Source of the DNA: Fistulifera solaris
Lineage: Eukaryota
DNA: 64,000 bases
Direction of reading: 5' to 3'
Assembly: GCA_030295235.1 (NCBI GenBank)
Contig: AP026153.1
Span: 620,001-684,000 of the forward strand
Below are positions 4,600-42,153 of the stretch, piece by piece. The notes under the pieces are model-generated. The model was not told the DNA's origin and made no database searches. It worked only from the letters and a program-made list of their open reading frames with translations. How positions within the stretch are numbered: position 1 is the first letter of the stretch; every line of letters begins with the position of its first letter. Made by a program: the position numbers and the translations under genes.

Positions 4600-5134
4600 G
4601 GTGTTTTTAAACGAATCAACAACGGAGTATTTCAAACTGTTTGTGTCGTGTCGTTTCGTCAAAAAACAGCTTTTCTTGTTAGGGATAACAAACGAGAAAA
4701 CAAATAAAATGAAATATTGTCTTTATTGTAGATGCAGATAATAATAGCAAATACAACAACATCAACAACAACGAGCGACCAAAAACGCGATCCTCTCCGT
4801 GATCTCTCGCGTCTCTCGTCGTCGTTGCGTCTCGCCGTGTCTTCGCGAGCCTACAATCCACGTTACAGTCAATCCAAGGGATCCGTTCGGACATTTTCAA
4901 CGGATGACTGTACATCGCGTCCTACCGGCACTGACAACTGACAACCCACCGCTAAGCCGCTAAGAGCTAAGAGCAGTCACTACCTGGAACCAGTACCACT
5001 GGAAAATACTACTCGTGAATCAAGTTATTGCCCAACCGGTACCCAAAATCCCTTCACTAGCACCAGTTCTGGGAAATAATAGAGAGGCAAAAGTTTTTCC
5101 CTTTCCCCTTTTTTGGCAACAAGACTCGGTGCTA

Positions 5135-6480
5135 ATAACGAAAGGAATTGCGTGTTCCAGAAATTCTGGATAAGTTATTTCATATCTGAGGAGGTCCAAA
5201 AAAAAGACCAGTTTTTCGAAACGATGAAATGCTGTGCGCATTCCAGAAAATATGTAAAGAGTGTTTTGGATCCTACCGGAATGCTATTTGCGTCCCAGAA
5301 ATTCCGGAAACTATGTTTTGGATCAGAACGAAAGAAAATGCAAATTCCAGATATTCTGGAAAGTTTGCTCCGCATTATTTCTGATCATACAGAAATTCTG
5401 TGGTGGTCCAGAAATTCTGGACCAGTTCTTGCGATCTGATGAAATGCTGTGCAAGCTCCAGAGAATCATAGCCACAGAATGTGCACGTTCCAGAAATTCC
5501 GGACACTTTGTTTTTTATCATAACGAAAGAAAATGCAAATTCCAGATATTCTGGAAATGTTGCTCCGTATTATTTCTGATCATACAGAAATTCTGTGGTG
5601 GTCCAGAAATTCTGGACCAGTTCTTTCGATCTGATGAAATGCTGTGCACGCTCCAGAAATTCAAAGCATGGTGTTGGATATCAAAGAGACAGAATGTGCA
5701 CGTTCCAGAAATTCCGGACACTTTGTTTTTTTATCATAACGAAAGAAAATGCAAATTCCAGATATTCTGGAAATGTTGCTCCGTATTATTTCTGATCATA
5801 CAGAAATTCTGTGGTGTTCCAGAAATTCTGGACCAGTTCTTTCGATCTGATGAAATGCTGTGCACGCTCCAGAAATTCAAAGCATGGTGTTGGATATCAA
5901 AGAGACAGAATGTGCACGTTCCAGAAATTGCGGACACTTTGTTTTTTTATCATAACGAAAGAAAATGCAAATTCCAGATATTCTGGAAATGTTGCTCCGT
6001 ATTATTTCTGATCATACAGAAATTCTGTGGTGTTCCAGAAATTCTGGACCAGTTCTTTCGATCTGATGAAATGCTGTGCACGCTCCAGAAATTCAAAGCA
6101 TGGTGTTGGATATCAAAGAGACAGAATGTGCACGTTCCAGAAATTCCGGACACTTTGTTTTTTTATCATAACGAAAGAAAATGCAAATTCCAGATATTCT
6201 GGAAATGTTGCTCCGTATTATTTCTGATCATACAGAAATTCTGTGGTGGTCCAGAAATTCTGGACCAGTTCTTTCGGCCCTACCGAAATGCAGTGCGCGC
6301 TCCAGAAATTCAGGGTACGGTGTTGAGAATCATAGCAACAGAATGTGCACGTTCCAGAAATCTCGGAAACTTTGTTTTGGATCATAACGAAAGAAAATGC
6401 AAATCATCCCAGAAATTCTGGAAATGTTGCTCCGTATAATTTGTGATCGTACAGAGATTCTGTGCTGAGAAATTCTGGGT
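5135..6480. repeat. 216-bp tandem array built from CAGAAATTCTG-type sub-repeats
   Basis: Near-identical blocks recur every 216 bp (ORF-track repeats at 5518/5734/5950 and 5595/5811/6027); about 4 clean copies with degenerate flanks. Confidence 0.95.
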
Positions 6481-9400
6481 CTGGTACCGTACCGGTAACT
6501 GGTAAACACGCTTCTCACGATGACCCCGACGTTTTCATTGCGCTGTTATTTTTTGCGAATGTTTCATTCATTCATTCATCCATTCCTTCCTTTCGAGGCT
6601 TTTGAGCGCTACTTAAAACATGAAATCAGCAATGAACATTACAAGTGAAGAGCAAGAAAGGTTTAACAATAATTCTGAAAGTCATGTATCGCAAAGGAAG
6701 ACCGCAAGCCGCGGCCGAGCGTCCTGACGTGTGCTGCCGCGGCACTCCGTGAGCTCAAACATGCAACTGCTACAAAGCGAGAAGGTGCCACGGCTTATTT
6801 ATGACCTTTTTATTGTGATCCTGGCGATCAGTGGCTCGAACGAGAATAGGATTTCGTCAGAAGGATGCATGTTGCGGGCTTTTCCCAGACAGCTATTTGG
6901 AATACGTTACCGTCGACGGTAATGAAGATGTTTTAGAAGTGTTGTCGCCAGATGTTCTTTTTTCACTGGTATCAAGTTTCAAGACAGCTAGAACTAGACC
7001 AATCAACCGCTGACGTGACTTTCGCCTGATATACTCATTTGATAATGGATCGCATGAGATCAAGCGCAAATTCGAAGGCTTTATTCTTGTGGTGCAAGTG
7101 AAAAAGCTATGAAATTCATTGGCAAGCCATTCCTGCAAATACCGAATGTCCTTTTCCGACTTCATAAAGGTTCCTTTTCCGTCGATAGGCGTTCTCCTCC
7201 GTGAAAGATTGGAGGATGCAAGTTTTTCTTCAAACGTTATTGTCCTGTGACAAACGGCGTTAATACGTCAAATAGGAAATCGTGTGAGCTGGATAGTGTT
7301 TGCCTGGTTTGTCGTGGCGCCGCTTCAGTTTCTAAGTTGTGAGACCGGCGGACGCTTTGATGATTCGTGCATTTACGCTAAATTTCCACCATATCATTCA
7401 TCAATCTCTGGTCAAACGCATTGACGCCGCACTCACGAAGAAGAAGACCGCATGCAACAACTCACACGTTTTATCGTACGCGTCGTGGAATCAATCTGTC
7501 ATGGGGAGTTTTCCGACTACCACGATGGCAACCGCTCAAGAAATCGCCGATTGTTCTTTAAAAGTGACAGTTCGAGTGGTGGACAATTCGAATGGCTGGC
7601 CGTGAATTTCCTCGTGATCTTTGGCCTAGTTTAGTATTCGCGCCGTTGACCACCATGTCACGTAAATCAATGCGCTTGCGGAAACCACGTATAATTACAT
7701 GGATAGTAAAACGCAGACGTTCCGGGGGCAAAAATGAAAGAACGAATGATCGTATCCCTTTCGCAAGTTGTTTGCAGTGCTCTTAGCTAGCTTGCAGTCG
7801 GCGGCATGGCAGGTTAACGTTACGACACCGAAGATCCATCATGCACCATAGGTTATGTAAAGGTCTTCCTGAATTTGCAAGTCCAGCTAAATCGCTAGGC
7901 GTCCATGAAGTGGGAACTGAGACAACTGCTGGACGTTTATATCATCAAGTCGTCCACGAAAGGTGAATTGGCACGCTAATTAAGAGTTCATGTCCTCACA
8001 ACGAGAAGAAGATCACCATTCCCTTGATATTCTCGCTTCTCATACTAGGATTGTGCACAAGCCGTTTGAAAGCGACGCAACTCGCGATGGCACTACGACG
8101 GAAATCTTTCAGGTAGCTGCTGCTACTAACCTGACCTACTGCCGATAAGCGTTTCTTCTATTCTCGCGACGACTAAAGTGACAAAACGCATTCAAACTAC
8201 GGTTACTACAACAACAGCTACAACTAAATGTTAGCGGTACTTCTTTTGAGTTGCTTGTTTCTAGTTCATATCATTTTTTAAATTACTTTTACTTGTGCGT
8301 CAGATTGATCTTTTGGGCCAGCTTTTTGCTGGCACAGTCTCAGTCTTTGGCCCGATACTGTGTGGAAGAGAGCTTACACTTTTGTGGTCCATTTTTCACC
8401 TCTTTTGGGCGCCGCCCTTTGTCGGACGGGGGCGCGTATGCTTATGCAACCAAACAACCCTCATTTGGGATCGGGTAGAGCGAGCCTTGTCAATGTTGGG
8501 ACTTTGCCCTAACACGGGGCCGCCACCTCAAGGTATGCCATCTCGGTCGACTTTGTCGCCGGGGTCATCCTTCGGGTGGAATTTCTACCATGCTGCCTTA
8601 CTATGGAGCTAACCTCTTCCAGCTGGTTTTCAGCCGGCCCTCCTTTGGCGGGTGTCGGCCGCCAATCTGGGGGACGCCACCGGGATAGGTATGGTCATCG
8701 CAATCGGTCGTATCGGTCCTCTTTGAGGCCGTCGCCGTTGGTGCCATCCTCCTCTGTCGTGGAATTTCCATGGCAACTTTACGGAGTGATTGCATACCAG
8801 GTCGTCCCCGTGGATTCCGCTTGGAGGCTTTCCTCCAGCACGACACCATCTTTGGGTGTCGAGTAAGCTTCTCTCCTCTTACTGCGCAACCTGCCACGCA
8901 TACGCTGGTACCAACACTGAAGTTACCCTCAGGCCGCACTTTGTCCATGGTCTTTGCCACGGCGCTTTTGAAAGAGAATCAAGGTGAGTAGCGGTGAAGG
9001 CCCCGAGGCGCAGCACATACTCTCATTCCTTGAAACAGAGAATTTGAGGCGAGGAGCGGTGAAGGCCTCAGGGCTCAGCACATCACTCGGCCTCTCTCCA
9101 GAGCAAGAGAGGGACGGAGGCTCAAGGCACCCGCGATTTCTCGTTGCTCCCATTGTGGCAGGAAGCTACTCCGCAGGGCCCGTGCACTACCCGTCAGTAT
9201 GAGGCTTCCCTGCGGACGAAGATCATTATATTATCTGACTGCAATACGCAAAATAGAAACAAGGTGAGCGAGTGAAAAGATTCACTGCTCTGTCAGAGAC
9301 AAATTGCACTTTGTGTGTGATTTGACACAAGGTGCAATTTGTGAGAAGAAAGAAGGATGCATGCGACAGGTTGATTGTCAAGTAAGTCGTGCGGAGCGCC

Positions 9401-27285: not shown

Positions 27286-27375
27286 CAGCTTGCCAGTCCC
27301 ACCGCATTTTTTGTCTGCGTCCTTGGTCTGCTTAACTTCATTATTCATCACACTATCGTAGCTTTTCGGTAGTTG

Positions 27376-28296
27376 ATGCTGAATACGGCTTCATCTTCAC
27401 GAGCATCGGCAATGCAGTTACAGCATTTATTGCAGAAAGTCTCTCAAACGAGTCGAGAGTCATGGCAATTGACTCGAGCGTGCTGGAAGTCATCACCGGC
27501 GCTGTCATCGGATCGGTTGAAAGCAATCCTCTTGGAGCAAGCTCAATCGAATAATCGAGTTGCTGTACGATTACTCTTATTAGAAAAAGAATGGGTCTTA
27601 TTGAAATATCACGGCGCCTCGAAATATTTACAGCAAAAATGGAGCAGTCGACGAGCGTTACCTAACGCTACTGACAGCAACCAACAACTGAATGTCGAAC
27701 AACGAAGCGATAACAACAATAAGGAAGTCGTCACCGAAACGGCACAAATAGCATTTATGATCACATCGCGAATGAAACAGCAATTACGGGAGGAATTGGG
27801 GTATAACGAAACGCTTCTAAAAGCCATGACTCCATTACAGGCAAGTTTGGTGTTGCAAAATCAAATCATTGCCGACGACTATAATGACAAGCTCCCTCAA
27901 CTAGAAGACTATCATAAGCAACAAGAGCTAAAGAGAAAAGAAGAAGAGGAGCTTCGGGCTCGAATAGAGCAACACAAAGCAGAAGAAAACGAACTAGCTC
28001 GTGTGAATGAATCCTCTCGCTCCAGTAGTACGGAATCATTTCCTTCAAAGCAAGTATCTTCCCAGACACCCTTCTTACAGAATGCATCGCTCTCTAGTGT
28101 CAGTCAATCCACCGGCGGCAACAAAATTACTTGGTATGAGGTGATTCAAATTCGACCTGATGGCGAAGAACAAAATATGGGATTGTACAAAAGTTCGGAA
28201 GAGGCACAAGAAGGGATCGATGCCTTGCAATACATTGCGCAGAGACGAAAAGAGAAGAAAGACGTGACGTTTTCTATTCGCCCTAGTCTTCGTTGA
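27376..28296 (+). CDS. Hypothetical protein (~306 aa) with coiled-coil segment
   Basis: Single uninterrupted ORF with protein-like composition (AFMITSRMKQQLREELGY...MTPLQA segment); no family recognised. Confidence 0.7.
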   Translation: MLNTASSSRASAMQLQHLLQKVSQTSRESWQLTRACWKSSPALSSDRLKAILLEQAQSNNRVAVRLLLLEKEWVLLKYHGASKYLQQKWSSRRALPNATDSNQQLNVEQRSDNNNKEVVTETAQIAFMITSRMKQQLREELGYNETLLKAMTPLQASLVLQNQIIADDYNDKLPQLEDYHKQQELKRKEEEELRARIEQHKAEENELARVNESSRSSSTESFPSKQVSSQTPFLQNASLSSVSQSTGGNKITWYEVIQIRPDGEEQNMGLYKSSEEAQEGIDALQYIAQRRKEKKDVTFSIRPSLR

Positions 28297-28715: not shown

Positions 28716-30594
28716 ATGAAACAGCCGACGAATAGCTTTGATCGCGATGATCCTTGGCATCAACTACTACCAATAGTCTTCTTCGGGTCTATAACCATAC
28801 TTTGGTTCTATTCCATTTCCCGATGGACGAATTTGATTAACTCGATGCAAGTCATTTACAACGATTGGGGCAGGACGCCCCTCGATCCTGTTCCGGGTGA
28901 ATACGCGGAGGAACCCATTGTGACGGTTCAAATTGCTACCTACAATGAAGGCACCGTCGTAGGAGACACTATTGCAAGAGCATGTGCGCTAGATTGGCCG
29001 CGAAACAAGCTTTTCATTCAAGTGTGTGACGACTCGACTGAGAAAGAGAGTATTGCCATCATCGAGAACTTGGTCTGTAACTGGAGAGAGAAATTTTTTA
29101 ATGTTGAACGCTTATTTCGGCATGATCGAATTGGTTATAAAGCGGGCAATCTGCAGCACAATTTTCAATTCATCAGGGGCGACTACGTTGCCTATTTGGA
29201 TGCCGATCACATGGTAGAGCCACAGTTTCTTCGCCGAACTATCCCGCACTTTTATGACGAGAACGGAAAGGCAAAGACACACATTGGGCTGGTGCAAACG
29301 CCCTGGTGCTACTACAATACACATCAGAACCTTCTCACCGAATGCGGTACGTTGTCGCGCCAGTTCACCCCCTTAGAAGACTTGGTAATACTTGTATCTC
29401 ACATTTGGTTGGGTCATTAGACGCGCTCGGGCTCGATATCCATCACGTTATTGAACAGGTTGGTCGATGCCGCTCGTACAAACTGTTTGGATTCAATGGC
29501 ACTGGCGGTGTGTGGAAAAAGCAAGCTGTGGAACATGCTGGTGGTTTTTCCTGTGACACAGTCACAGAAGACTTGTTGCTGTCTTACAAGGCCTATCTTG
29601 CTGGTTACTGGTTCATATACATACGCAATGCTCCTCAGGCGCTCGAAGTGCCAAGCTGCATTCTCGCACATGTACAGCAAAAACAACGTTGGACCAAGGG
29701 GTGTTTGCAGGTTCTCAGGATGCACTACAAAGAGATCTTCTTTTCCAAGCAGACATCAGTTGCTGTCAAGCTGGAGGCTTTAATGCATCTAAGCGGCCCT
29801 CTTCAACTCATTGCTGCAGTGACGGCTTTGCTAAGCTGTCCCTATCTCGTTTTCAATGGAGTAAATTCGATACTGGTCAAAGTTGTTTCCATATTTGCTC
29901 TGATAGAACCTTCTGTCGCTGCAATCCACTCCATCGTATCGAAAGTCCCAGGCGAAAACGGGCACTACAAACGCTGGTCTTCCAAGGTTGCGCGCACCCT
30001 GACGATTTTCCCTCACTTTGCCCTCCGATGCGGGATGGCTCCATTTGAAGCTAAAGCGGCAATAGAAGGACTATTTTCAAACGATGCTACCTTCCATACA
30101 ACCCCCAAGGAGGGTAGCAACTCGTCCGTCTCCAACGGAACCAAAGCCAAGAAACTTGCTCGAGCAACAGGAGACGACATTGCCGCTATTGTAGGGCTTT
30201 CTTTGGCCGTCCTACAATTCGTCAACATGTCGAATCTTGACTTCAATACGCTGAATTTCCTAACATTCGATTTTGCTGTCTTTGCGCTGAATGTTGTGAT
30301 GTGCATCGGTCTCTTTAGTGTTCCTCTGACGTTTTTAATTGCAAAGTACCCGTCGGTAGGCCTGCAAGCACTCCGTTCGCTCGCCAAAACACGACATATT
30401 GTTCTCTCCGTTTCACTTCTGGCTTATATCGTCGGGTACATGACATGCTTTATGTCAGGAGATGAGGTGAGTATGTCAATGTGAATGTGCTTCGTGCCAT
30501 TGAATCCTTTTCGCCCAGTCTCATTCAAATTTCCGCAATGCAGATTGATCTCGCTTACGCAGACTCGCGATCCGTCAGTAGTATCAGTCGTTAA
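28716..30594 (+). CDS. Cellulose-synthase-like processive GT2 glycosyltransferase, paralog 1 (~575 aa); introns 29347-29420 and 30467-30543
   Basis: VTVQIATYNE, DDS, GYKAGNL, DAD, GFNGTGGVW, TED, QQKQRWTKG and FHTTPK motifs; multiple TM helices; both introns GT-AG and frame-restoring; third exon only 16 codons. Confidence 0.9.
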
Positions 30595-31982
30595 ATAATG
30601 TGCTATTCCTATAAGCTCGACGTTCGGTTCGTTTTGTTGCCACCGAGCGCTTCAAGGTTATCTCTTCTTGCAAGCTGCACACGATTCTGATATGCGAATC
30701 ACCTTCATTCACCATTCTCAAGCTCTTTACAAGTTGCGTAAAGCCTTCCGCTTCAAAGCACATGTTACATCATGTATGCATTTATTATGTTCTTGATATT
30801 TCGGAGAACCGCTCGATCGCTGTGCAAGATACTGAATACGAATTACGGATTGTGGATACCCATAGTTCAGGATCGAAAATGGCAGTTCATGAATAAGACG
30901 AAGTGAGATTCAATGATGTTCCAGTGACACACTTCATTATTTGTTCCAGGTGGTAGCAATTATGGTCAGCACGAGTGTTCGGAAGCAAGGAAATGCTCGG
31001 AAGTAATAATGGCCGTCATTGTCGTCGTCATCGCATGGGAATTAGTCACGGATCATTGTGATTGACAATAAGAGCTGCGTGCGCCCTCCAACTCCAACCT
31101 CCAACTCCAACACTCTCCACATCTCCACACTCCAACGCAATAATGTGACGTGTCACGTGACGTCGATTCCCGATTGCCGATTGACCTTTACCATAGACCC
31201 TACCCGGTACGGAAAAGTATTGAGTCCTGAGTTCTGAGTTGCTACTTTGTACTGTACTTGCCTCTGGAGTGTATCTGAGAGAATCCAATTGTCTCAACAC
31301 ATTACAGTTTGAAGTGTGATACTTGTACCTGGTATAATGACAAAAAGAGGGCGTAAGAAGTAAGAACTTGATGCGGAGTCTCTATGTGGAATGTGGATTT
31401 GGTTTGCAATTAAAGTATGCGTCGTTAGTCGTTAGTCGTTAGCGTCTGCTTGCGCTCCGTCAATGCTATCTACCAAACGTCTTTTGCCGTCACATAATAA
31501 TGCCTTTATTATTGCCTTTACGAATTCCGATGGGCGGGTTCTTGTTACACAAGACGCTGGTGGCTCAAACCATTGCAATGTACAGTTTCTCAGAAATTGT
31601 ATCAATGAATTAAAGCGAGAAACGGGAGCAAGGCATTTTGAGTACACAAAAGCGCACAAGCAAGTTCCCACTCGTGACTTATTTTGATAAGCCCCCTATA
31701 TACTGTGCAATGATTGTTAGATTTATGTTTCGCAACATCGACGCTGCAATCTGCAATCTCGAAAGCATCGGAGTGATTGTTGATAGGGAATAAATGGGAA
31801 GACAAAAACAAGACGAGAAAGAGAAAAAAGAATAGGGAGGAGAGTTCATTGAATGAATCATTCATCATAACAAAAGAAGACAAAACTCAAAGGAAATAGC
31901 AGAGGAGAAAACGGATTCAGCGCACCTCCTATCATCCGAGTGAAGACGCGATCAGCATTTGTATATAAAAACTTGAATCAAA

Positions 31983-34900
31983 ATGACAAGAGTAACAGAC
32001 TCATTCGATCATAGAGATCCTTGGCATCAAGTGTTGCTGTTAGTCTTTTACGGATCAGTAAGCATGCTCTGGTTTTATTCTATCTCGAGATGGACGAATT
32101 TAATTAACTCGCTGCAAGTCATTTACAACGATTGGGGTAAGACGCCCCTCGATCCTGTTCCGGGAGAATATGCGGAGGAGCCCATTGTGACGGTTCAAAT
32201 TGCTACCTATAATGAGGGCACGGTCGTAGGAGATACTATTGCGAGAGCATGTGCGCTAGACTGGCCCCGAGACAAGCTCTTCATTCAAGTTTGTGACGAC
32301 TCGACGGAGAAAGAAAGTATCGCGATCATCGAGAACTTGATTTTAAGCTGGAGAGAGAAAGGATTTAACGTCGAGCGCTTGTTTCGACATGATCGAATCG
32401 GCTATAAGGCGGGCAATCTGCAGCACAACTTTCAATTTATTAAAGGCGATTACGTTGCCTATCTGGATGCCGATCACATGGTTGAACCGCAATTTCTTCG
32501 TCGAACAATCCCCCACTTTTATGACGAGAACGGAAAAGCGAAGACTCATATCGGGCTAGTGCAAACGCCCTGGTGCTACTACAATACACATCAGAACCTT
32601 CTCACAGAATGCGGTATGTCATGATGTGTTTTTGCTTCTGAATTCAGTCGTTTATAAAGCTCTCGATTCAATCTAACATTCTGTTCTTTTGTAAGATGCG
32701 CTCGGGCTCGACATTCACCACGTTATTGAACAGGTTGGTCGGTGCTGCTCCTACAACATGTTCGGTTTCAATGGTACTGGCGGTGTATGGAGAAAGCAAG
32801 CGGTCGAAGACGCTGGTGGCTTTTCTTGGGATACTGTGACAGAAGACTTGCTGTTATCCTACAAAGCCCATTTGGAGGGGTACGAGTTTGTTTACGTGCG
32901 AGATGCACCCCAAGCTCTGGAAGTACCCAGTTGCATTCTCGCTCATGTGCAACAAAAACAGCGATGGACCAAAGGGTTCATGCAGGTTCTTCGAATGTAC
33001 TACACCGACATTCTCTTCTCCAAGCAAGCGACCTTTGCAGTCAAACTGGAAGCTCTTATGCATCTGAGCGGCCCTCTCCAACTTGTTGCTGCCATGACTG
33101 CGCTACTCGCGTACCCCTATCTCGTTTTCCACAAAATTGATTCCTTTTTGGTCAAGATCGTATCCATCTTGGCTTTGACTGAACCCGTCGCTGCCGCAAT
33201 CCATGCCGTTGTATCAAAAATCCCAGGTGAAAACGGGCACTACACGTACTGGCACTCCAAGGTAGCGCGGCTTCTAACAATTCTTCCGTACTTTGCGCTC
33301 CGTTTCGGGATGACTCCTTTTGAGACCAAGGCCATCTTTGAAGGCTTCTTCTCAGACGACGCAACCTTCCACACCACTCCCAAAGAAGGTAGTAACTCCA
33401 CAGTTCCAGCCGTAAAGCGCGCCAAGAAAGTAGTGCGAACCGGAGGCGATGACATGGCTGCTGGAGTTGGGCTCTTTCTGGCAATCCATCAATTCATCTA
33501 CGTCTTTGCTTTCGATATGCACATGCCCTGCCACACTGTATTCGACGTGGTTGTGCGAGCGTTGAATCTTCTCATCTGCATCGGCCTCTTCACTGTATCC
33601 ATCATGTTCTTCCTCGCAAAGCACCCATCATTGGGACAGCGAGCTATTCACTCGCTCGCCAATACGCGACATGTGTTCCTTTCGGTTGCTCTTCTAGCAT
33701 ACACAGTCGGCTATATGACGTGCTTCATGTCCAGCGGCGAGGTAAGTCTTTCCGCAAGTCGCAACCAACTAATTCCAATCAATCTCACACAATATTCTAT
33801 GCACGTTTCCAGATCGATTTTTCAATAATTGAGAAGCACCCCATCAATAACACAATGTTTGCAAGCACTGATGATGGCATCGTTTTGCCGTCAAAGGCGT
33901 TCGAAGTGATCGACACAGTTCGTCCATTAGCATGCCGACCCAAGGTAGCAGCGAAACCTTTCTCATCTGTTGTCGCTCTTGGCTTGCCTCGTACGGGTTC
34001 GACTTTAATGTTCAACTTCTTGACCGAACTCGGAAAGCATTATCCCAACATCGACAACTTGAGCCTGTTCGAGACCTTTGCGCCTGTCGCTACGATGCAG
34101 CTTCCTGGTCTGACGCAAATTGTCGACATTCTGAGAAAGAACTGCGACGGACTGGAGCCTGGCGCAAAGACGATGTTCCAACAACGATTTGACTTTCAGT
34201 CCGAACACGAGCTGTACGAGTACCTGCGCAAGGATGAACATCCCGAGATCTATGAGCCGCTCATCGCAGCCCATTCCAATAGGTACAAGGACCCGCTGAG
34301 CTGGTTGCATTATGTCGAGAGCATACCGTCCACTGGAGACTATGGCTACGTGGAGTACAAGGTGTTCGACCACGACATGCTGGAAATCGGCATTAGCTCT
34401 CCCGAGCTGATTGACTCGATGCATTCCCCAAACACGAAGTTTGTGATCAACTACCGCCGCAACTTGTTGGAATCATACGTGTCGCAAAAGATTGCCGAAG
34501 CCAGCGGTAATTGGGTTGGAGCGAAGACCACATCTGATGACGCCATCACGATCAACCGCCAAGAGTTTGAAGACTACATCAAAGCTAAGGTAACATATTT
34601 CCAAGAGATTCGCGACCATCTAGACCGCAAGAACATCCCGTACTCCGTCTTCGAGTACAACACACATTTGGGAGCCGAACCGCAGCAACGAGACACGCTT
34701 CGACACTTGCAGAAACTGCTACGTTTGCGCATCGATGATTCGGTCGTCGAGGATATTATGGCCGGACTTAGAAGGAAGAAACAATCGACGGTTCCAGTAA
34801 GGGAGCAGATTCGAAACTGGGACGAAGTCGTGCAGTGGGGACTCGGCAAGGAAAAGGACGAAGACTGGGAAGACTTGTTTGCATCGGTCGATAACAGCAA

Positions 34901-37900
34901 GGCGCTTGTGGCATACGAACCCCCGAAGCAGCTTGCTTGCAAAGTTGGCGCCCCGGCAAAACCCATGTCGTCTGTGATCGCCCTTGGTTTACCTCGTACG
35001 GGTTCGACTTTAATGTTCAACTTCTTGACCGAACTTGGAAAGCATTATCCCAACATCGACAACTTGAGCCTGTTCGAGACCTTTGCGCCTGTCGCTACGA
35101 TGCAGCTTCCTGGTCTGACGCAAATTGTCGACATTCTGAGAAAGAACTGCGACGGACTGGAGCCTGGCGCAAAGACGATGTTCCAACAACGATTTGACTT
35201 TCAGTCCGAACAAGAGCTGTACGAGTACCTGCGCAAGGATGAACATCCCGAGATCTATGAGCCGCTCATCGCAGCCCATTCCAATAGGTACAAGGACCCG
35301 CTGAGCTGGTTGCATTATGTCGAGAGCATACCGTCCACTGGAGACTATGGCTACGTGGAGTACAAGGTGTTCGACCACGACATGCTGGAAATCGGCATTA
35401 GCTCTCCCGAGCTGATTGACTCGATGCATTCCCCAAACACGAAGTTTGTGATCAACTACCGCCGCAACTTGTTGGAATCATACGTGTCGCAAAAGATTGC
35501 CGAAGCCAGCGGTAATTGGGTTGGAGCGAAGACCACATCTGATGACGCCATCACGATCAACCGCCAAGAGTTTGAAGACTACATCAAAGCTAAGGTAACA
35601 TATTTCCAAGAGATTCGCGACCATCTAGACCGCAAGAACATCCCGTACTCCGTCTTCGAGTACAACACACATTTGGGAGCCGAACCGCAGCAACGAGACA
35701 CGCTTCGACACTTGCAGAAACTACTACGTTTGCGCATCGATGATTCGGTCGTCGAGGATATTATGGCCGGACTTAGAAGGAAGAAACAATCGACGGTTCC
35801 AGTAAGGGAGCAGATTCGAAACTGGGACGAAGTCGTGCAGTGGGGACTCGGCAAGGAAAAGGACGAAGACTGGGAAGACTTGTTTGCATCGGTCGATAAC
35901 AGCAAGGCGCTTGTGGCATACGAACCCCCGAAGCAGCTTGCTTGCAAAGTTGGCGCCCCGGCAAAACCCATGTCGTCTGTGATCGCCCTTGGTTTACCTC
36001 GTACGGGTTCGACTTTAATGTTCAACTTCTTGACCGAACTTGGAAAGCATTATCCCAACATCGACAACTTGAGCCTGTTCGAGACCTTTGCGCCTGTCGC
36101 TACGATGCAGCTTCCTGGTCTGACGCAAATTGTCGACATTCTGAGAAAGAACTGCGACGGACTGGAGCCTGGCGCAAAGACGATGTTCCAACAACGATTT
36201 GACTTTCAGTCCGAACAAGAGCTGTACGAGTACCTGCGCAAGGATGAACATCCCGAGATCTATGAGCCGCTCATCGCAGCCCATTCCAATAGGTACAAGG
36301 ACCCGCTGAGCTGGTTGCATTATGTCGAGAGCATACCGTCCACTGGAGACTATGGCTACGTGGAGTACAAGGTGTTCGACCACGACATGCTGGAAATCGG
36401 CATTAGCTCTCCCGAGCTGATTGACTCGATGCATTCCCCAAACACGAAGTTTGTGATCAACTACCGCCGCAACTTGTTGGAATCATACGTGTCGCAAAAG
36501 ATTGCCGAAGCCAGCGGTAATTGGGTTGGAGCGAAGACCACATCTGATGACGCCATCACGATCAACCGCCAAGAGTTTGAAGACTACATCAAAGCTAAGG
36601 TAACATATTTCCAAGAGATTCGCGACCATCTAGACCGCAAGAACATCCCGTACTCCGTCTTCGAGTACAACACACATTTGGGAGCCGAACCGCAGCAACG
36701 AGACACGCTTCGACACTTGCAGAAACTACTACGTTTGCGCATCGATGATTCGGTCGTCGAGGATATTATGGCCGGACTTAGAAGGAAGAAACAATCGACG
36801 GTTCCAGTAAGGGAGCAGATTCGAAACTGGGACGAAGTCGTGCAGTGGGGACTCGGCAAGGAAAAGGACGAAGACTGGGAAGACTTGTTTGCATCGGTCG
36901 ATAACAGCAAGGCGCTTGTGGCATACGAACCCCCGAAGCAGCTTGCTTGCAAAGTTGGCGCCCCGGCAAAACCCATGTCGTCTGTGATCGCCCTTGGTTT
37001 ACCTCGTACGGGTTCGACTTTAATGTTCAACTTCTTGACCGAACTTGGAAAGCATTATCCCAACATCGACAACTTGAGCCTGTTCGAGACCTTCGCGCCT
37101 GTCGCTACGATGCAGCTTCCTGGTCTGACGCAAATTGTCGACATTCTGAGAAAGAACTGCGACGGACTGGAGCCTGGCGAAAAGACGATGTTCCAACAAC
37201 GATTTGACTTTCAGTCCGAACAAGAGCTGTACGAGTACCTGCGCAAGGATGAACATCCCGAGATCTATGAGCCGCTCATCGCAGCCCATTCCAATAGGTA
37301 CAAGGACCCGCTGAGCTGGTTGCATTATGTCGAGAGCATACCGTCCACTGGAGACTATGGCTACGTGGAGTACAAGGTGTTCGACCACGACATGCTGGAA
37401 ATCGGCATTAGCTCTCCCGAGCTGATTGACTCGATGCATTCCCCAAACACGAAGTTTGTGATCAACTACCGCCGCAACTTGTTGGAATCATACGTGTCGC
37501 AAAAGATTGCCGAAGCCAGCGGTAATTGGGTTGGAGCGAAGACCACATCTGATGACGCCATCACGATCAACCGCCAAGAGTTTGAAGACTACATCAAAGC
37601 TAAGGTAACCTACTTCCAGGAGATTCGTGAGCATCTTGACCGCAAGAGAATCCCATACTCGATCTTTGAATACAACACACATTTGGGAGCTGAACCTCAG
37701 CAACGCGACACGCTTCGACACTTACAAAAGCTACTTCGCCTTCGGGTCGATGATACTATCGTCGAAGACATTATGGCGAATCTCAGAAGGAAGAAACAAT
37801 CGACAGTTCCAGTTAGAGAGCAAATTCGAAACTGGGAAGAAGTCGTACAGTGGGGACTTGGCAAAGAGAAGGACGAAGATTGGGATGATCTCTTTGCTGG

Positions 37901-37925
37901 CGCTTCGGAGGCAGTGTCGTTTTAG
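31983..37925 (+). CDS. GT2 cellulose-synthase-like glycosyltransferase fused to four tandem sulfotransferase domains (~1929 aa); introns 32614-32695 and 33742-33812
   Basis: D,D,D,QxxRW and FHTTPK GT2 motifs. The phase-0 intron GAG|GTAAGT...TTCCAG|ATC joins the GT2 frame to the 1401-aa ORF frame, which holds four copies of LGLPRTGSTLM (5'-PSB loop) and YRRNLLESYVS (3'-PB motif). Confidence 0.88.
33989..37609 (+). repeat. Coding tandem repeat with 1005-bp (335-aa) unit, near-identical copies
   Basis: Exact 1005-bp period (ORF-track repeats at 34005/35010/36015/37020); only a few substitutions seen between copies. Confidence 0.97.
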
Positions 37926-38050: not shown

Positions 38051-40919
38051 CTAATCACTACCGGTTGAGAGTTCACTGAAACGCAAGATTTGATTGTACA
38101 TGTTAGAATTGAGGCGATCAACGCGCAAACGATCACAGTCATTTGTGATAGACAACTTACCGTTCTACGGCTTCAGCGATGCGTGATCGCCATTGAGCGA
38201 AATGGTCGTCTCCGTTTGTTGTTGGAGCATCCTCCATCAGTACATCGACTAGCCGGAGCAAAACTGGACTTGCATCTTTACCGGGAGGGGACAGTTCGTA
38301 AAAAATCGGAGGGGATACACGATAGCTGCTAGCCGCGTCCTTTATTGCTACCGCTAAAGCTGGACTAATGTGAGCTGGTTCAGGACTTCGGGTGGTGACA
38401 ATATGCGCCGCATGCAGCATTAAGATTTGATCAGGTGCATCCAAGAACAACAGCAGAGGGCGCTTTGATGTCTGATCGTACTCCATCACAGCCTCCTGCA
38501 CGGCAGTTGAAGACAAATCCATAACATCCATTATAGGCTCATCCTCCAGTTCGTGGCTACCAGGTTTAGTGCTAGGGACTCTGGGGCTACTCTCCCACAA
38601 TTGTAGACGGGGTGCAATAGCCCGGGCCAAGACACTAGGAACCATATTCGACATTTGACAGAGCGTTTGTAAACGGTAGTCCAAACGAGTCGGAAAAGAC
38701 CGCAAGGCATCACATTGCGTCAATAGAAACACCATCAGTGGTGTCAATGCAAGCTTAGCATGACCTTGACCAAGCAGCACATCTTTCGGATTTAACCCAC
38801 CAGCACGATCTAGCAAGCGCTCCGCCGCATGGAAATATCCAGCTCCCGCAGCTTCCACATTCTTCTCCTTTTGTTCTTGTTCCACGATAGCCTGCTCCTC
38901 GGCAGATTGGTAAGCGCAAACCAGAAGGGACTGCAGCCACTGTTCCGCTAGCGTAAAATGGTCTTCACTTTCATCTTGCATCGATGCAAGCACTAGTTTA
39001 TGAAAGAGGACAACGGCTAGTGCTTCTGGGTCAAGAGAATCATAAAGATCTTCAACATTGTAAGCTAAGGGCATTCGACGACTTGAGATGCGCATTCGTC
39101 GAACCGTAAAATGTTCTCCGGTTGCAGCATCCTTAACAATAGTGGTGTAGGCAAAGCAAGTCTGTAATACTGGCTTGAGCTGAACTTGTCCAAATCCACT
39201 GACGAGCATGCGTTGTTGCACCGAGGATTTCTCTAACGTCAAATCGACAGCAAGATTGGTATGCGAATCGCAAACCCCCATACGCCACAACTGACTCGAA
39301 TCTTCCTCCGGACAAATAGGGCCTATCATTCCACCTTGTGAATAAAGCAATGACAGTTGAGGCCGCGGCTGATGTTGCTTTGTATGGGCGACGACAGGTT
39401 CGGAATCCACAATAAAACCAGGGGACAATCGAACGCGCAGTTCAGCCCCAAAGACGCATTTCCAGGGTGCAATCTGGTGTAAATGAGAAGTCATATAGGA
39501 TTTATCCACTTCTCCGTTGGAATGAATCGGAATATTGACAGGTCCATGTGGACATCCACTATTGGAAAGCAACGCAATGGCCACAGCACATTCAGCAGTT
39601 TCTTGACACAAAAGCAAATCAACTCCCATAGATGCCGATGCACATTGTTTCCCTAGATCGGCATATACCTGATCCCAATCTCCAAACTCTTCTAAAGCAG
39701 ATGGCGTCCACCCGGCGTTGTATTGTGTCCTATGTATTCCGTTTGTTGTGTCGCTAGGGACGGCTTCCTCGTCTGGTGTTGAGCCTACTGATTCCGTCGA
39801 ATGCGATCCATCAGTGACAGAGAAACGCGACCCTAAGGGTACTGTACCATGAACTCGACCACCCAAACAGTAAGCGGCGGAATCACGTCTTTGGTTCACG
39901 GAAGATGATTTCAATTTCCATTCCGAGGGTCGACTGGCGAGAAAGCACGTCAATTTCGCCCCACAATACGGTAAAGCCGATTGTGCTGTCGGAGTAGCAG
40001 CTGTAGGTGTTGACGCGGTTCGAGCTTGTCGTCCAGCAGCTACCGCGTTCTCTTCCAAGGCCGATAGTACGACTTGTGTCGTCCAAACCAAGGGAAAGCC
40101 CGTCCCCGTAGCCGAATACTGCTCTAATGACTGCAAAGCCGTATGCACCTGTGCGCGATACTCCGACAAGGGGACACAGGAATGCAAGACGGCTTGCAAT
40201 AGATCCTGTTGTGACCTTGTGCAGTCGGCTTGGGACGACATTTGAATGAAATAAGGGACATTCGAAGTGAGTTGGTAGATCGAGAGTTTCATGATCGAAT
40301 CGAGTGAATTGTTGTGTGTACTTGGATTCTCATCTTTCTCGTTCACAGCAGACGGAGAGGCGAGCGTGTGCGCTATAAACAAACTGAGGTGAACATGCGG
40401 CGGAGCCTGTTCGAGTACTTGCAGTATTGCACAAGATGTGGCCTTCCAGTACTGTGAATTGCGACAGGATCCATCCAGCACAAAGAACCAAAGTGGTGGA
40501 CACGTCATGGCGGGGACACGATAGAGAGTCGACGGCGAGGAAGAAGATGAAGACGATATCCGCAAGGGCAAATGAAAGACTTGTCCCGATGGGGATGTCT
40601 CTGATTGTTTGTCTTGTTGTTGTTGAAAAGAATCAGAAGAAGACGAGACGCGTCCACACAAATAACACAAAATCAGTGACGAAGAACCCAATTGAAAATG
40701 CGTCGTTCGATTCGGATGCGGTGCTCCACATTGCGAACACTTTAGTATTTGTGTCAAATAACGCGGTTCTTCTTCTTCCTCTGTAGTATCATGATTCGTC
40801 GGGGGCAAAGGCGTCAGAGAGACAGCAAACGGTAAATTGGAGTCATCGAGTATTTGTGTATTCACAGGAAAGCGAGCGGTTACGGGTCGTATACTCTCAT
40901 TCCAGAATTCGCGTGTCAT
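38051..40919 (-). CDS. Divergent Sec23/Sec24-family protein (Zn finger, trunk/vWA-like, beta-sandwich, helical); intron 38076-38160
   Basis: SIRPVTARFP...LPFAVSLTPL, CSQC...CYLC zinc finger, FFVLDGS, FGAELRVRLSPG, LQTCFAYT...RRMRI and LFLDAPDQI motifs; last exon after GTAAG...CAG ends in TAG at 38051. Confidence 0.75.
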
Positions 40920-42153
40920 TATCTCGATTTTGAAGGAAAAAGCGATGCAAAAACAAGACAAAGAGATTAATGAGAGGCATAAGTTTGCTATTGTAGTGCA
41001 ATAGAAACAATGATGCCCTTTCGTCGCTTTTCCTCTCAACGGATGCCCTTTCTGCATAATGACGAATGACGACTGTTTCGTGAGCGAATTCAGTCGCGGA
41101 GAAACGTCGCATACATTTCAGCTCATAGTCGTTTGACAAGCACGAACAATCCGAAACCTCTATGCACGCATAAACCGATAAAATGCAGATTGCGGAAGGA
41201 TTCTCATTAGCAGTTACCTCCGAATTGGGATTGCATGATATTTCATTTTTGGGATCGCATTTGAAGACGTATTTGTCGCTTTTAATCGCTTGTCAATGCC
41301 GTTGATCATGACTGAACCATTTTGAAGCACCTTGTCCAATCGATGCGCAGTGCTCATGAGCTAGTATTTTACAATTCAAATGGCATGAATGTAACGTTTA
41401 GCTGCATTTTTGGGCAAACTGTCCTCTTGGTTGCTCGTAAATGCTTACGGATCATCCTCTTAAATATTTACTATAGAGCAAAGTGTTGGTTTATGGCAAC
41501 GGTAGGCTCGACAGCCTTTCAGTCACGAGTAAAATAGACAACCAAATTTGTTCGAGTTTACGTAGCCTAACATGTATGAACGTCTGTCTTACAGTACCTG
41601 CTAACACCTATTAGCATGAAATAATATATAGTTGCATTCCCATTAAATATTTTGTTCCTCTTGCTCATGAACGCGTGCGGATCGTCGTCTTGCATAAATC
41701 TACTATAGACCAAAGTGTAGGTTCAATCGGAACACGACTGCCTTTCCGTCATGAATAATTGAAAACCTTTTTCGGAGCACACGAATACGATTGCGCTGAT
41801 TATCAATGAAATTGTTGCCTTTGTATTACGGCATCGTTGTTGTCGAGGGTGCAGACTAGCGCAAAGCATTGTCGGGCAACAAGCATCCATCCATCGCAAG
41901 TCGCAAGCCTAAACGCCTGTCCGTCGCTCATCAGCGGAGTGAAGTTTACCTTGGTACTTCCACGTGGAAGTGTTTTCGACCGAAGGAAAAAGCGAAATGA
42001 TGCGTGCGGAAGGCGGACGAGCCCCACGACGAGCCAACAAAACGCGCATTGAAAGAGAAAAAGAGGAGATCATTACGATTGATTGAATACAAATCGTCCT
42101 TTCTATTGTATTCTTTGTTTGTTGTTTTCTTCGTGAAACACTCGTTAGGCAAA

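Follow-up and report, generated by a model that had tools for sequence, protein, structure and literature searches.

A tail-less tandem paralog of a GT2 synthase-sulfotransferase fusion in the diatom Fistulifera solaris is probably an intact gene under selection

Two glycosyltransferase family 2 (GT2) genes lie in tandem in a 64-kb stretch of the genome of the diatom Fistulifera solaris (GenBank assembly GCA_030295235.1, contig AP026153.1, positions 620,001 to 684,000 of the forward strand), hereafter the window, whose own positions are used throughout. The second gene, paralog 2 (p2), runs on into a sulfotransferase tail, whereas the first, paralog 1 (p1), ends before it. We conclude that p1 is probably a real and intact gene under selection, which would make it a tail-less tandem duplicate of a diatom GT2 synthase-sulfotransferase fusion. 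F. solaris carries two subgenomes, H and L, and the window copies are those of H. Retrieved relatives are labelled P0001-P0083, L001 and L002.

An earlier note on this DNA had described first and second exons of equal length in both genes (631 and 1046 bp), two intron positions in common, and a third exon that opens with IDL in p1 and IDF in p2, the former reaching a stop 16 codons on. The spliced structures bear this out (Table 1). All four introns are of the GT..AG type, measure 71-82 nt and occupy matching codon positions in p1 and p2. Over the GT2 part, 559 codons align gap-free, with 433 identical residues and 1274 of 1677 identical bases (76% nucleotide identity). Retention of intron 2 in p1 would lead to a stop after five codons (VSMSM), so p1 is tail-less whether it is spliced or not. 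The note had also found no sulfotransferase motif between p1 and the next gene, and this held as well: in a tblastn search, the whole p2 tail gave no hit to positions 30467-31982 at E<=10. None of the three open reading frames (ORFs) of the spacer (87-111 amino acids) matched a Pfam family, and a GT2 query matched only the p1 and p2 loci within the window.

Table 1. Coordinates of the two paralogs and the spacer between them in the window
Feature	Positions	Length	Strand	Description
p1 exon 1	28716-29346	631 bp	+	N-terminal transmembrane helix and first half of GT2 catalytic domain (DDS, YKAGN, DAD, QTPW); PF00535, E=1.1e-12
p1 intron 1	29347-29420	74 nt	+	GT..AG, phase 1
p1 exon 2	29421-30466	1046 bp	+	FGFNGTGG, TED, QQKQRW, FHTTPK loop, five hydrophobic helices; PF13632, E=7e-14
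p1-specific C255, C305, C350, C414	within 29421-30466		+	held in p1 exon 2
p1 intron 2	30467-30543	77 nt	+	GT..AG, phase 0; same codon boundary as p2 intron 2
p1 exon 3	30544-30594		+	16 codons (IDLAYADSRSVSSISR) and TAA; without sulfotransferase domain
Spacer p1-p2	30595-31982	1388 bp		neither tail remnant nor recognisable gene (tblastn, blastn)
p2 exon 1	31983-32613	631 bp	+	
p2 intron 1	32614-32695	82 nt	+	GT..AG
p2 exon 2	32696-33741	1046 bp	+	
p2 intron 2	33742-33812	71 nt	+	GT..AG; junction SSGE/IDFS same in GenBank GAX26162.1
p2 exon 3	33813-37925	4113 bp	+	linker and four tandem units of about 335 amino acids, predicted sulfotransferase fold

In one small run (X2), a 166-nt contig (30518-30683) crosses the boundary between p1 intron 2 and exon 3 unspliced and extends 89 nt past the stop. 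The run type is not on record, and the contig represents either DNA or unspliced RNA.

Both proteins have the core of a processive GT2 synthase, with the Pfam domains PF00535 and PF13632 above cut-offs in each. The p1 motifs DDS (residues 105-107), DAD (162-164), TED (259-261) and QQKQRW (296-301) align to DDG, DCD, TED and QRIRW of E. coli BcsA. In an alignment of 50 family members, p1 conforms at 25 of 25 invariant columns, in line with the claim of the earlier note that it keeps all catalytic motifs; the differences reported there, GGFSC in p1 versus GGFSW in p2 and KGCLQ versus KGFMQ, are likewise seen in the alignment. At the 59 columns conserved to at least 90% in the 48 other members, p1 keeps 55 and p2 57. 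The best sequence matches of p1 and p2 among solved structures were to bacterial cellulose synthase BcsA. An AlphaFold (AF2) model of p1, built from the 50-sequence alignment (predicted local distance difference test, pLDDT, 89.7; predicted template modelling score, pTM, 0.88), matched BcsA in VIA-align with Z 27.6-29.3 over 426-448 residues (root mean square deviation 3.8-4.5), and hyaluronan synthases (HAS) and plant CesA with Z 20-25. The pair are not cellulose synthase equivalogs: p1 and p2 scored 114.7 and 129.5 bits on NCBIfam TIGR03030 (cut-off 699.1), and 100.5 and 111.1 bits on NF008558 (cut-off 992). GT2 enzymes are inverting according to CAZy, so a beta linkage is expected in the product.

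Metagenomes were scanned for relatives twice. The first scan returned none, and the second only two distant loci, L001 (37%) and L002 (54%). On the L001 contig, positions 4861-7467 encode an intron-less GT2 of 868 amino acids that is 43% identical to p2 over residues 12-520; for its C-terminal extension of about 350 amino acids, no match to the p2 tail or to a Pfam family was obtained.

Both proteins are already present in GenBank as predictions. Spliced p1 is identical at 575 of 575 residues to GAX26161.1 (stored here as P0067), which bears the automatic source name 'processive 1,2-diacylglycerol beta-glucosyltransferase'; another automatic name in the set is 'hypothetical protein'. The 1929 residues of p2 correspond to GAX26162.1 (FisN_18Hh279, 924 amino acids) over the first 690 and the last 247 residues, and p2 is longer by exactly 1005 residues, that is, three tail units. 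GAX26161.1 and GAX26162.1 have consecutive accessions and lie on one 162-kb scaffold. F. solaris has been described as an allodiploid (PMC5935921; 10.1101/2021.11.10.468027), and a homeologous tandem pair, GAX17621.1 (FisN_18Lu294) and GAX17622.1 (FisN_18Lh279), is found on a 336-kb scaffold of the other subgenome. Since the pair is tandem in both subgenomes, the duplication is older than the divergence of the two parental genomes.

Several lines of evidence bear on whether p1 is maintained. The pairwise ratio of nonsynonymous to synonymous divergence (dN/dS) between p1 and p2, for which the earlier note had considered a value near 1, turned out to be 0.102 (NG86) to 0.134 (maximum likelihood and LWL85), with dN 0.14 and dS 1.05-1.35. 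At a dS of about 1 or more, a copy without stops or frameshifts is not what would be expected of a neutral sequence. Neither a disrupted frame nor a disrupted splice site was found in p1, whose ORF is intact and whose introns are GT..AG. The same ORF is identical in the older assembly. Three more p1-type sequences, P0001, P0002 and P0004 (the last from the L subgenome), are 95%, 90% and 88% identical to exon 2, and their reading frames are intact over the covered parts. GGFSC, KGCLQ and LRCGM are common to these and the window copy wherever the sites are covered. The L ortholog P0004 ends in EIGLGFADSQSTSSISRY, which is again the short tail, its stop shifted downstream by one codon.

The distribution of changes points the same way. 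In the clade of four p1-type sequences 48 of 284 columns vary, among them none of the 41 that are invariant in the family versus 26 of the 132 poorly conserved ones (Fisher p=4.5e-4); outside the 41 invariant columns, 48 of 243 vary. A homeolog contig compared with p1 over 29973-30017 shows eight differences, six of them synonymous (binomial p=0.004 against a synonymous expectation of 25%), and its two replacements (R to H and F to V) match those of the L protein P0004 exactly. Taken together, these data speak for purifying selection that still acts on p1.

Constraint on the two copies is far from equal. A comparison of the H and L subgenomes shows 35 replaced residues out of 284 in p1 and 5 in p2. 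The path from H to L measures 0.14 for p1 and 0.015 for p2 in a maximum-likelihood tree (27 rows, 390 columns), and since the duplication about 0.37 versus 0.04 changes per site have accrued. Relative-rate counts with seven outgroups gave 25-36 p1-specific versus 12-18 p2-specific changes (p=0.0015-0.053). On these estimates p1 is clearly the faster, less constrained copy, at about 7-9 times the rate of p2. A tandem duplicate with domain loss and a faster rate is a textbook outcome.

Divergence rises toward the C-terminal membrane part: per 40 residues, p1 and p2 share 36-40 at positions 41-240 and only 16 at 481-520. After P0003 had branched off, 26 changes became fixed on the p1 stem. Four of them turn an aromatic residue into cysteine (W255C, F305C, Y350C and F414C) and all p1-type sequences with coverage of the site retain them; another three stem changes also remove an aromatic residue. 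The cysteine excess, a post hoc count, has a binomial p of about 0.002-0.007 against a background of 2-3%. None of the cysteine changes falls on a canonical catalytic position; in BcsA, V and M stand opposite C255 and C305. Although the tree places P0003 with the p1 clade (support 100/97), it still has the ancestral W, F, Y and F, so the cysteine changes are later than the duplication. The pattern points to a relaxation or shift of constraint in the channel part of p1 rather than to decay.

A separate observation concerns exon 1. Of the 193 comparable codons among codons 31-240, 59 differ synonymously between p1 and p2, a smaller share than the 111 of 209 after codon 240 (Fisher p=5e-6); in the former region, window positions 28806-29435 and 32073-32710, synonymous divergence amounts to about half the value for the remaining gene. 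Identical synonymous codons form a run of at most 14 (codons 193-207), which taken alone does not reach significance (permutation p=0.063). Exon-1 states are mosaic among relatives: H170 occurs in both the p1-type and the p2-type exon 1 of one relative, and Q170 in both window genes. Gene conversion across exon 1 would be compatible with these data, as would an unusually strong constraint on it.

Several points weigh against our conclusion that p1 is a functional gene. Its expression, the 30466^30544 splice and its 3' end are predictions from DNA only. The pairwise dN/dS is a mean of both lineages at a saturated dS; if it is divided according to branch lengths, the ratio of p1 itself would be roughly 0.2-0.25, a matter of arithmetic and not of a fitted model. 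The codon-level sign of recent constraint comes from just eight visible differences. The H copy carries a private G127F at a glycine that is 92% conserved in the family, and all p1-type copies have R243K in the FNGTGGVWR motif. The short tails of H and L are identical at 11 of 16 residues and are thus less conserved than the body. Loss of aromatic residues at 7 of the 26 stem changes could equally mean a degraded channel. The membrane topology discussed below is a prediction from hydropathy, charge distribution and the topology of BcsA, and most relatives are intron-truncated ORF calls that may be fused or unfused.

Some of these points would suit a duplicate without function that has begun to decay and, though truncated, has so far escaped disruption by chance. 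The fast rate, the loss of the entire tail, the private changes at conserved sites and the removed aromatics are what such a copy could display. Yet neither the ORF nor a splice site nor the short tail is damaged in H or in L, the orthologs in two further relatives are intact where covered, all catalytic motifs are kept, the dN/dS is low as given above, variation in the clade spares the invariant columns, and six of the eight differences visible between the homeologs are synonymous. In addition, the duplication is older than the split from the organism carrying P0003. We therefore consider decay unlikely, and the suggestion of the earlier note that p1 is a truncated duplicate starting to decay is disfavoured by the ORF and short tail kept in the L ortholog and by the unvaried family-invariant columns.

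A second alternative grants p1 a function but no autonomy: its exon 2 donor at 30466 might be spliced to the p2 acceptor at 33813, or p1 might be a subunit that works only together with p2. The earlier note had listed a hetero-oligomer among its readings. The two genes are on the same strand, 1388 bp apart, their intron phases are identical and the 30466^33813 junction is in frame. Plant CesA synthases work as oligomers, and CesA homotrimers are among the structural matches listed. Against this, p1 has a terminal exon of its own, with a stop, that is conserved in both subgenomes. Contigs of four runs, three of which cover just scattered pieces of the locus, show no joints, which counts for little as these runs are not on record as RNA. 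Such dependence on p2 seems to us quite improbable.

The direction of change, that is, whether p1 lost a tail or p2 acquired one, is most likely the former. Fused homologs with a single tail unit lie outside the p1/p2 split (P0034, from a Bacillariaceae metagenome-assembled genome, P0036, P0037, P0038, P0039 and P0083). The fused relatives fall into at least two clades there, and their tails are 25-32% identical and have the same PRxGS and C-terminal W..DWEDLF motifs. Moreover, p1 retains the junction intron, the EID at the start of exon 3 and an extra helix at residues 535-570 for which BcsA, CesA and HAS offer no partner. With fused clades outside the split and these three features retained, tail loss in p1 is the economical solution. 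The opposite course, in which p1 preserves an ancestral unfused state and p2 gained its tail after the duplication, could draw on the many relatives of about 500 amino acids without any tail and on the close matches P0006, P0008, P0013, P0015 and P0035, which look unfused. These close matches, however, end at the end of exon 2 or run into an apparent intron, being ORF calls on intron-bearing DNA. Tail gain in p2 is thus very unlikely in our judgement.

The possibility that two alleles or homeologs were put in tandem by the assembly, raised in the earlier note for allelic haplotypes, is practically eliminated: although the organism is allodiploid and homeolog contigs of 90-95% identity occur in the same DNA run, p1 and p2 are only 76% identical at a dS above 1, and their introns and flanks do not align, with identical columns in a forced alignment reaching only 35-44% (38 of 86 in intron 1, 76 of 218 from intron 2 onward and 129 of 365 for 315 bp upstream). 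Both the older independent GenBank assembly and the homeologous scaffold show the genes adjacent to each other. Positions 30022-32051, which reach from exon 2 of p1 to exon 1 of p2, are also bridged without substitutions by one contig of a DNA-like public run, possibly the assembly's own data.

The extra helix of p1 bears on where a fused domain would be placed. Hydrophobic segments of p1 lie at residues 17-35, 330-358, 354-386, 463-483, 495-517 and 537-555. The structural matches to BcsA, CesA and HAS span about model residues 9-519, the BcsA match reaching from residue 8 to about 528, and end before 535, which leaves the last long helix (535-570) as an addition. The loop 518-536 is rich in K and R, and the segments 482-494 and 556-575 are poor in basic residues or devoid of them. 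The final channel helix of BcsA has a cytosolic end. Given the additional helix and this charge pattern, the C-terminus should lie on the side of the membrane opposite to the catalytic domain. A sulfotransferase fused there would encounter the chain as it leaves the channel, in a compartment to which 3'-phosphoadenosine 5'-phosphosulfate (PAPS) is supplied. The helix is kept in p1 though no domain comes after it.

The tail of p2 consists of four units with a period of 1005 nt, which start near 33855, 34875, 35880 and 36885; unit 1 shares 93.5%, 93.5% and 88.5% identity with units 2, 3 and 4. On Pfam Sulfotransfer_3 (PF13469), one unit alone gives 16.6 bits, under the cut-off of 27, while the four-unit tail as a whole reaches 53.2 bits on the Pfam sulfotransferase profile. 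In the structural model of a unit (pLDDT 76.5), the top Foldseek matches are Stf0 and TPST, and with VIA-align 50 of 50 entries among the matches listed are sulfotransferases (Z 9.9-11.2). According to this model, the tail unit has a sulfotransferase fold. R60, G62, S63, R215 and S224 are invariant across nine homologous tails; they may belong to the PAPS motifs, namely the 5'-phosphosulfate-binding motif P-R/K-x-G-S/T (5'-PSB) and the 3'-phosphate-binding motif R...S (3'-PB).

With regard to copy number, the window holds four near-identical units in p2 and the GenBank model GAX26162.1 one; the repeat was probably collapsed in the older assembly. According to the assembly preprint, nanopore reads revealed tandem repeats at other loci. 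P0081 (707 amino acids, two matched stretches, 91% identity) points to at least two tail units in other data. P0082 (1862 amino acids) contains five stretches that match the p2 tail unit at 29% identity and is without a GT2 part, and in P0038 (1468 amino acids), a three-part fusion, a protein-kinase domain (Pfam PF00069) precedes the GT2 and sulfotransferase parts.

We propose the following course of events. An ancestral fused gene would have been duplicated in tandem before the parental lineages of F. solaris separated. Then p1 would have lost the sulfotransferase-coding part of exon 3, whereas its junction intron, the opening codons of that exon and the last transmembrane helix stayed in place. 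On the cytosolic side of the membrane, both proteins would polymerise a nucleotide sugar into a beta-linked glycan and thread the chain through their own channel, and the sixth helix, which BcsA, CesA and HAS do not have, would take the C-terminus across. There, the four sulfotransferase units of p2 could sulfate the chain as it emerges. From p1, an identical or similar chain would emerge that is not sulfated in cis and is either left unsulfated or sulfated by other enzymes. An unsulfated polymer from p1 and a sulfated one from p2 is the most natural functional reading of the pair, as the earlier note had envisaged; it is reasonable but unproven.

A bolder and rather doubtful extension would be that the pair constitutes a genetically encoded control of sulfation, with the ratio of p1 to p2 setting the amount or the block pattern of sulfate on a secreted beta-glycan. 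In that case p1 and p2 would share the same secretory membrane, possibly in one complex, and the luminal sulfotransferase array of p2 might also serve chains extruded by p1. The four cysteine changes of p1 would then be an adaptation of the channel or of the interface between p1 and p2 and not the result of drift.

Sulfated polysaccharides of diatoms are reported to feed and select marine bacteria and to affect carbon export (PMC13063451; 10.1101/2024.07.03.601839), and in our literature searches we met no enzyme from a diatom that makes a polymer of this kind. A synthase that carries its own sulfotransferases is a strong candidate for this role. The searches also returned no paper on this gene pair and none on a GT2-sulfotransferase fusion in diatoms; the main text of the F. 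solaris assembly preprint contains no occurrence of sulfotransferase, glycosyl or polysaccharide and does not mention the locus. The main value of the pair is that p1 offers a natural control for p2, with the same catalytic core and no sulfation in cis. A CRISPR ribonucleoprotein protocol has been described for F. solaris (PMC13276009), so single and double knockouts of p1 and p2 are feasible.

The neighbourhood of the pair shows no glycan pathway cluster: the neighbours encode TLDc, RRM/zf-CCCH and ZZ proteins, a class I tRNA synthetase, an ion channel and two proteins without family. The flanking ORFs, 27373-28296 on the plus strand (307 amino acids) and 38157-41117 on the minus strand (986 amino acids), have no Pfam family at E<=0.001.

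Among known systems, p1 and p2 resemble BcsA (PDB 4p00, 9fnn), CesA and HAS in the GT-A core with D, DxD, TED and QxxRW and in the channel-forming helix bundle. They differ from BcsA in sequence, with an identity of only about 20%, and in lacking a PilZ domain, and they carry one C-terminal helix more than BcsA, CesA and HAS. At the N-terminus BcsA has four helices, and p1 and p2 have one. A possible likeness to plant GT2 enzymes of the CslA/CslC type (mannan and xyloglucan-backbone synthases) comes from the relative P0031, named 'glucomannan 4-beta-mannosyltransferase' by its source and only 27% identical. The family consensus FNGTAGIWR / DTxTEDLDLSY resembles CslA motifs, which serves as a lead rather than a test.

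The tail unit of p2 has the same fold as Stf0, TPST and the cytosolic SULT enzymes over about 190-228 residues, with the Z scores given above. Identity to these is 9-15%, and the p2 unit differs in being fused to a synthase and repeated four times. Precedents exist for the fusion of a sulfotransferase to another enzyme of a pathway. Heparan sulfate N-deacetylase/N-sulfotransferase (NDST) joins a glycan-modifying sulfotransferase to another pathway enzyme, and fused genes of the fucan pathway have been described in the brown alga Nemacystus (PMC6418280). Compared by description only, these fusions differ from p2 in that the sulfotransferase is not joined to the polymerising and translocating synthase itself.

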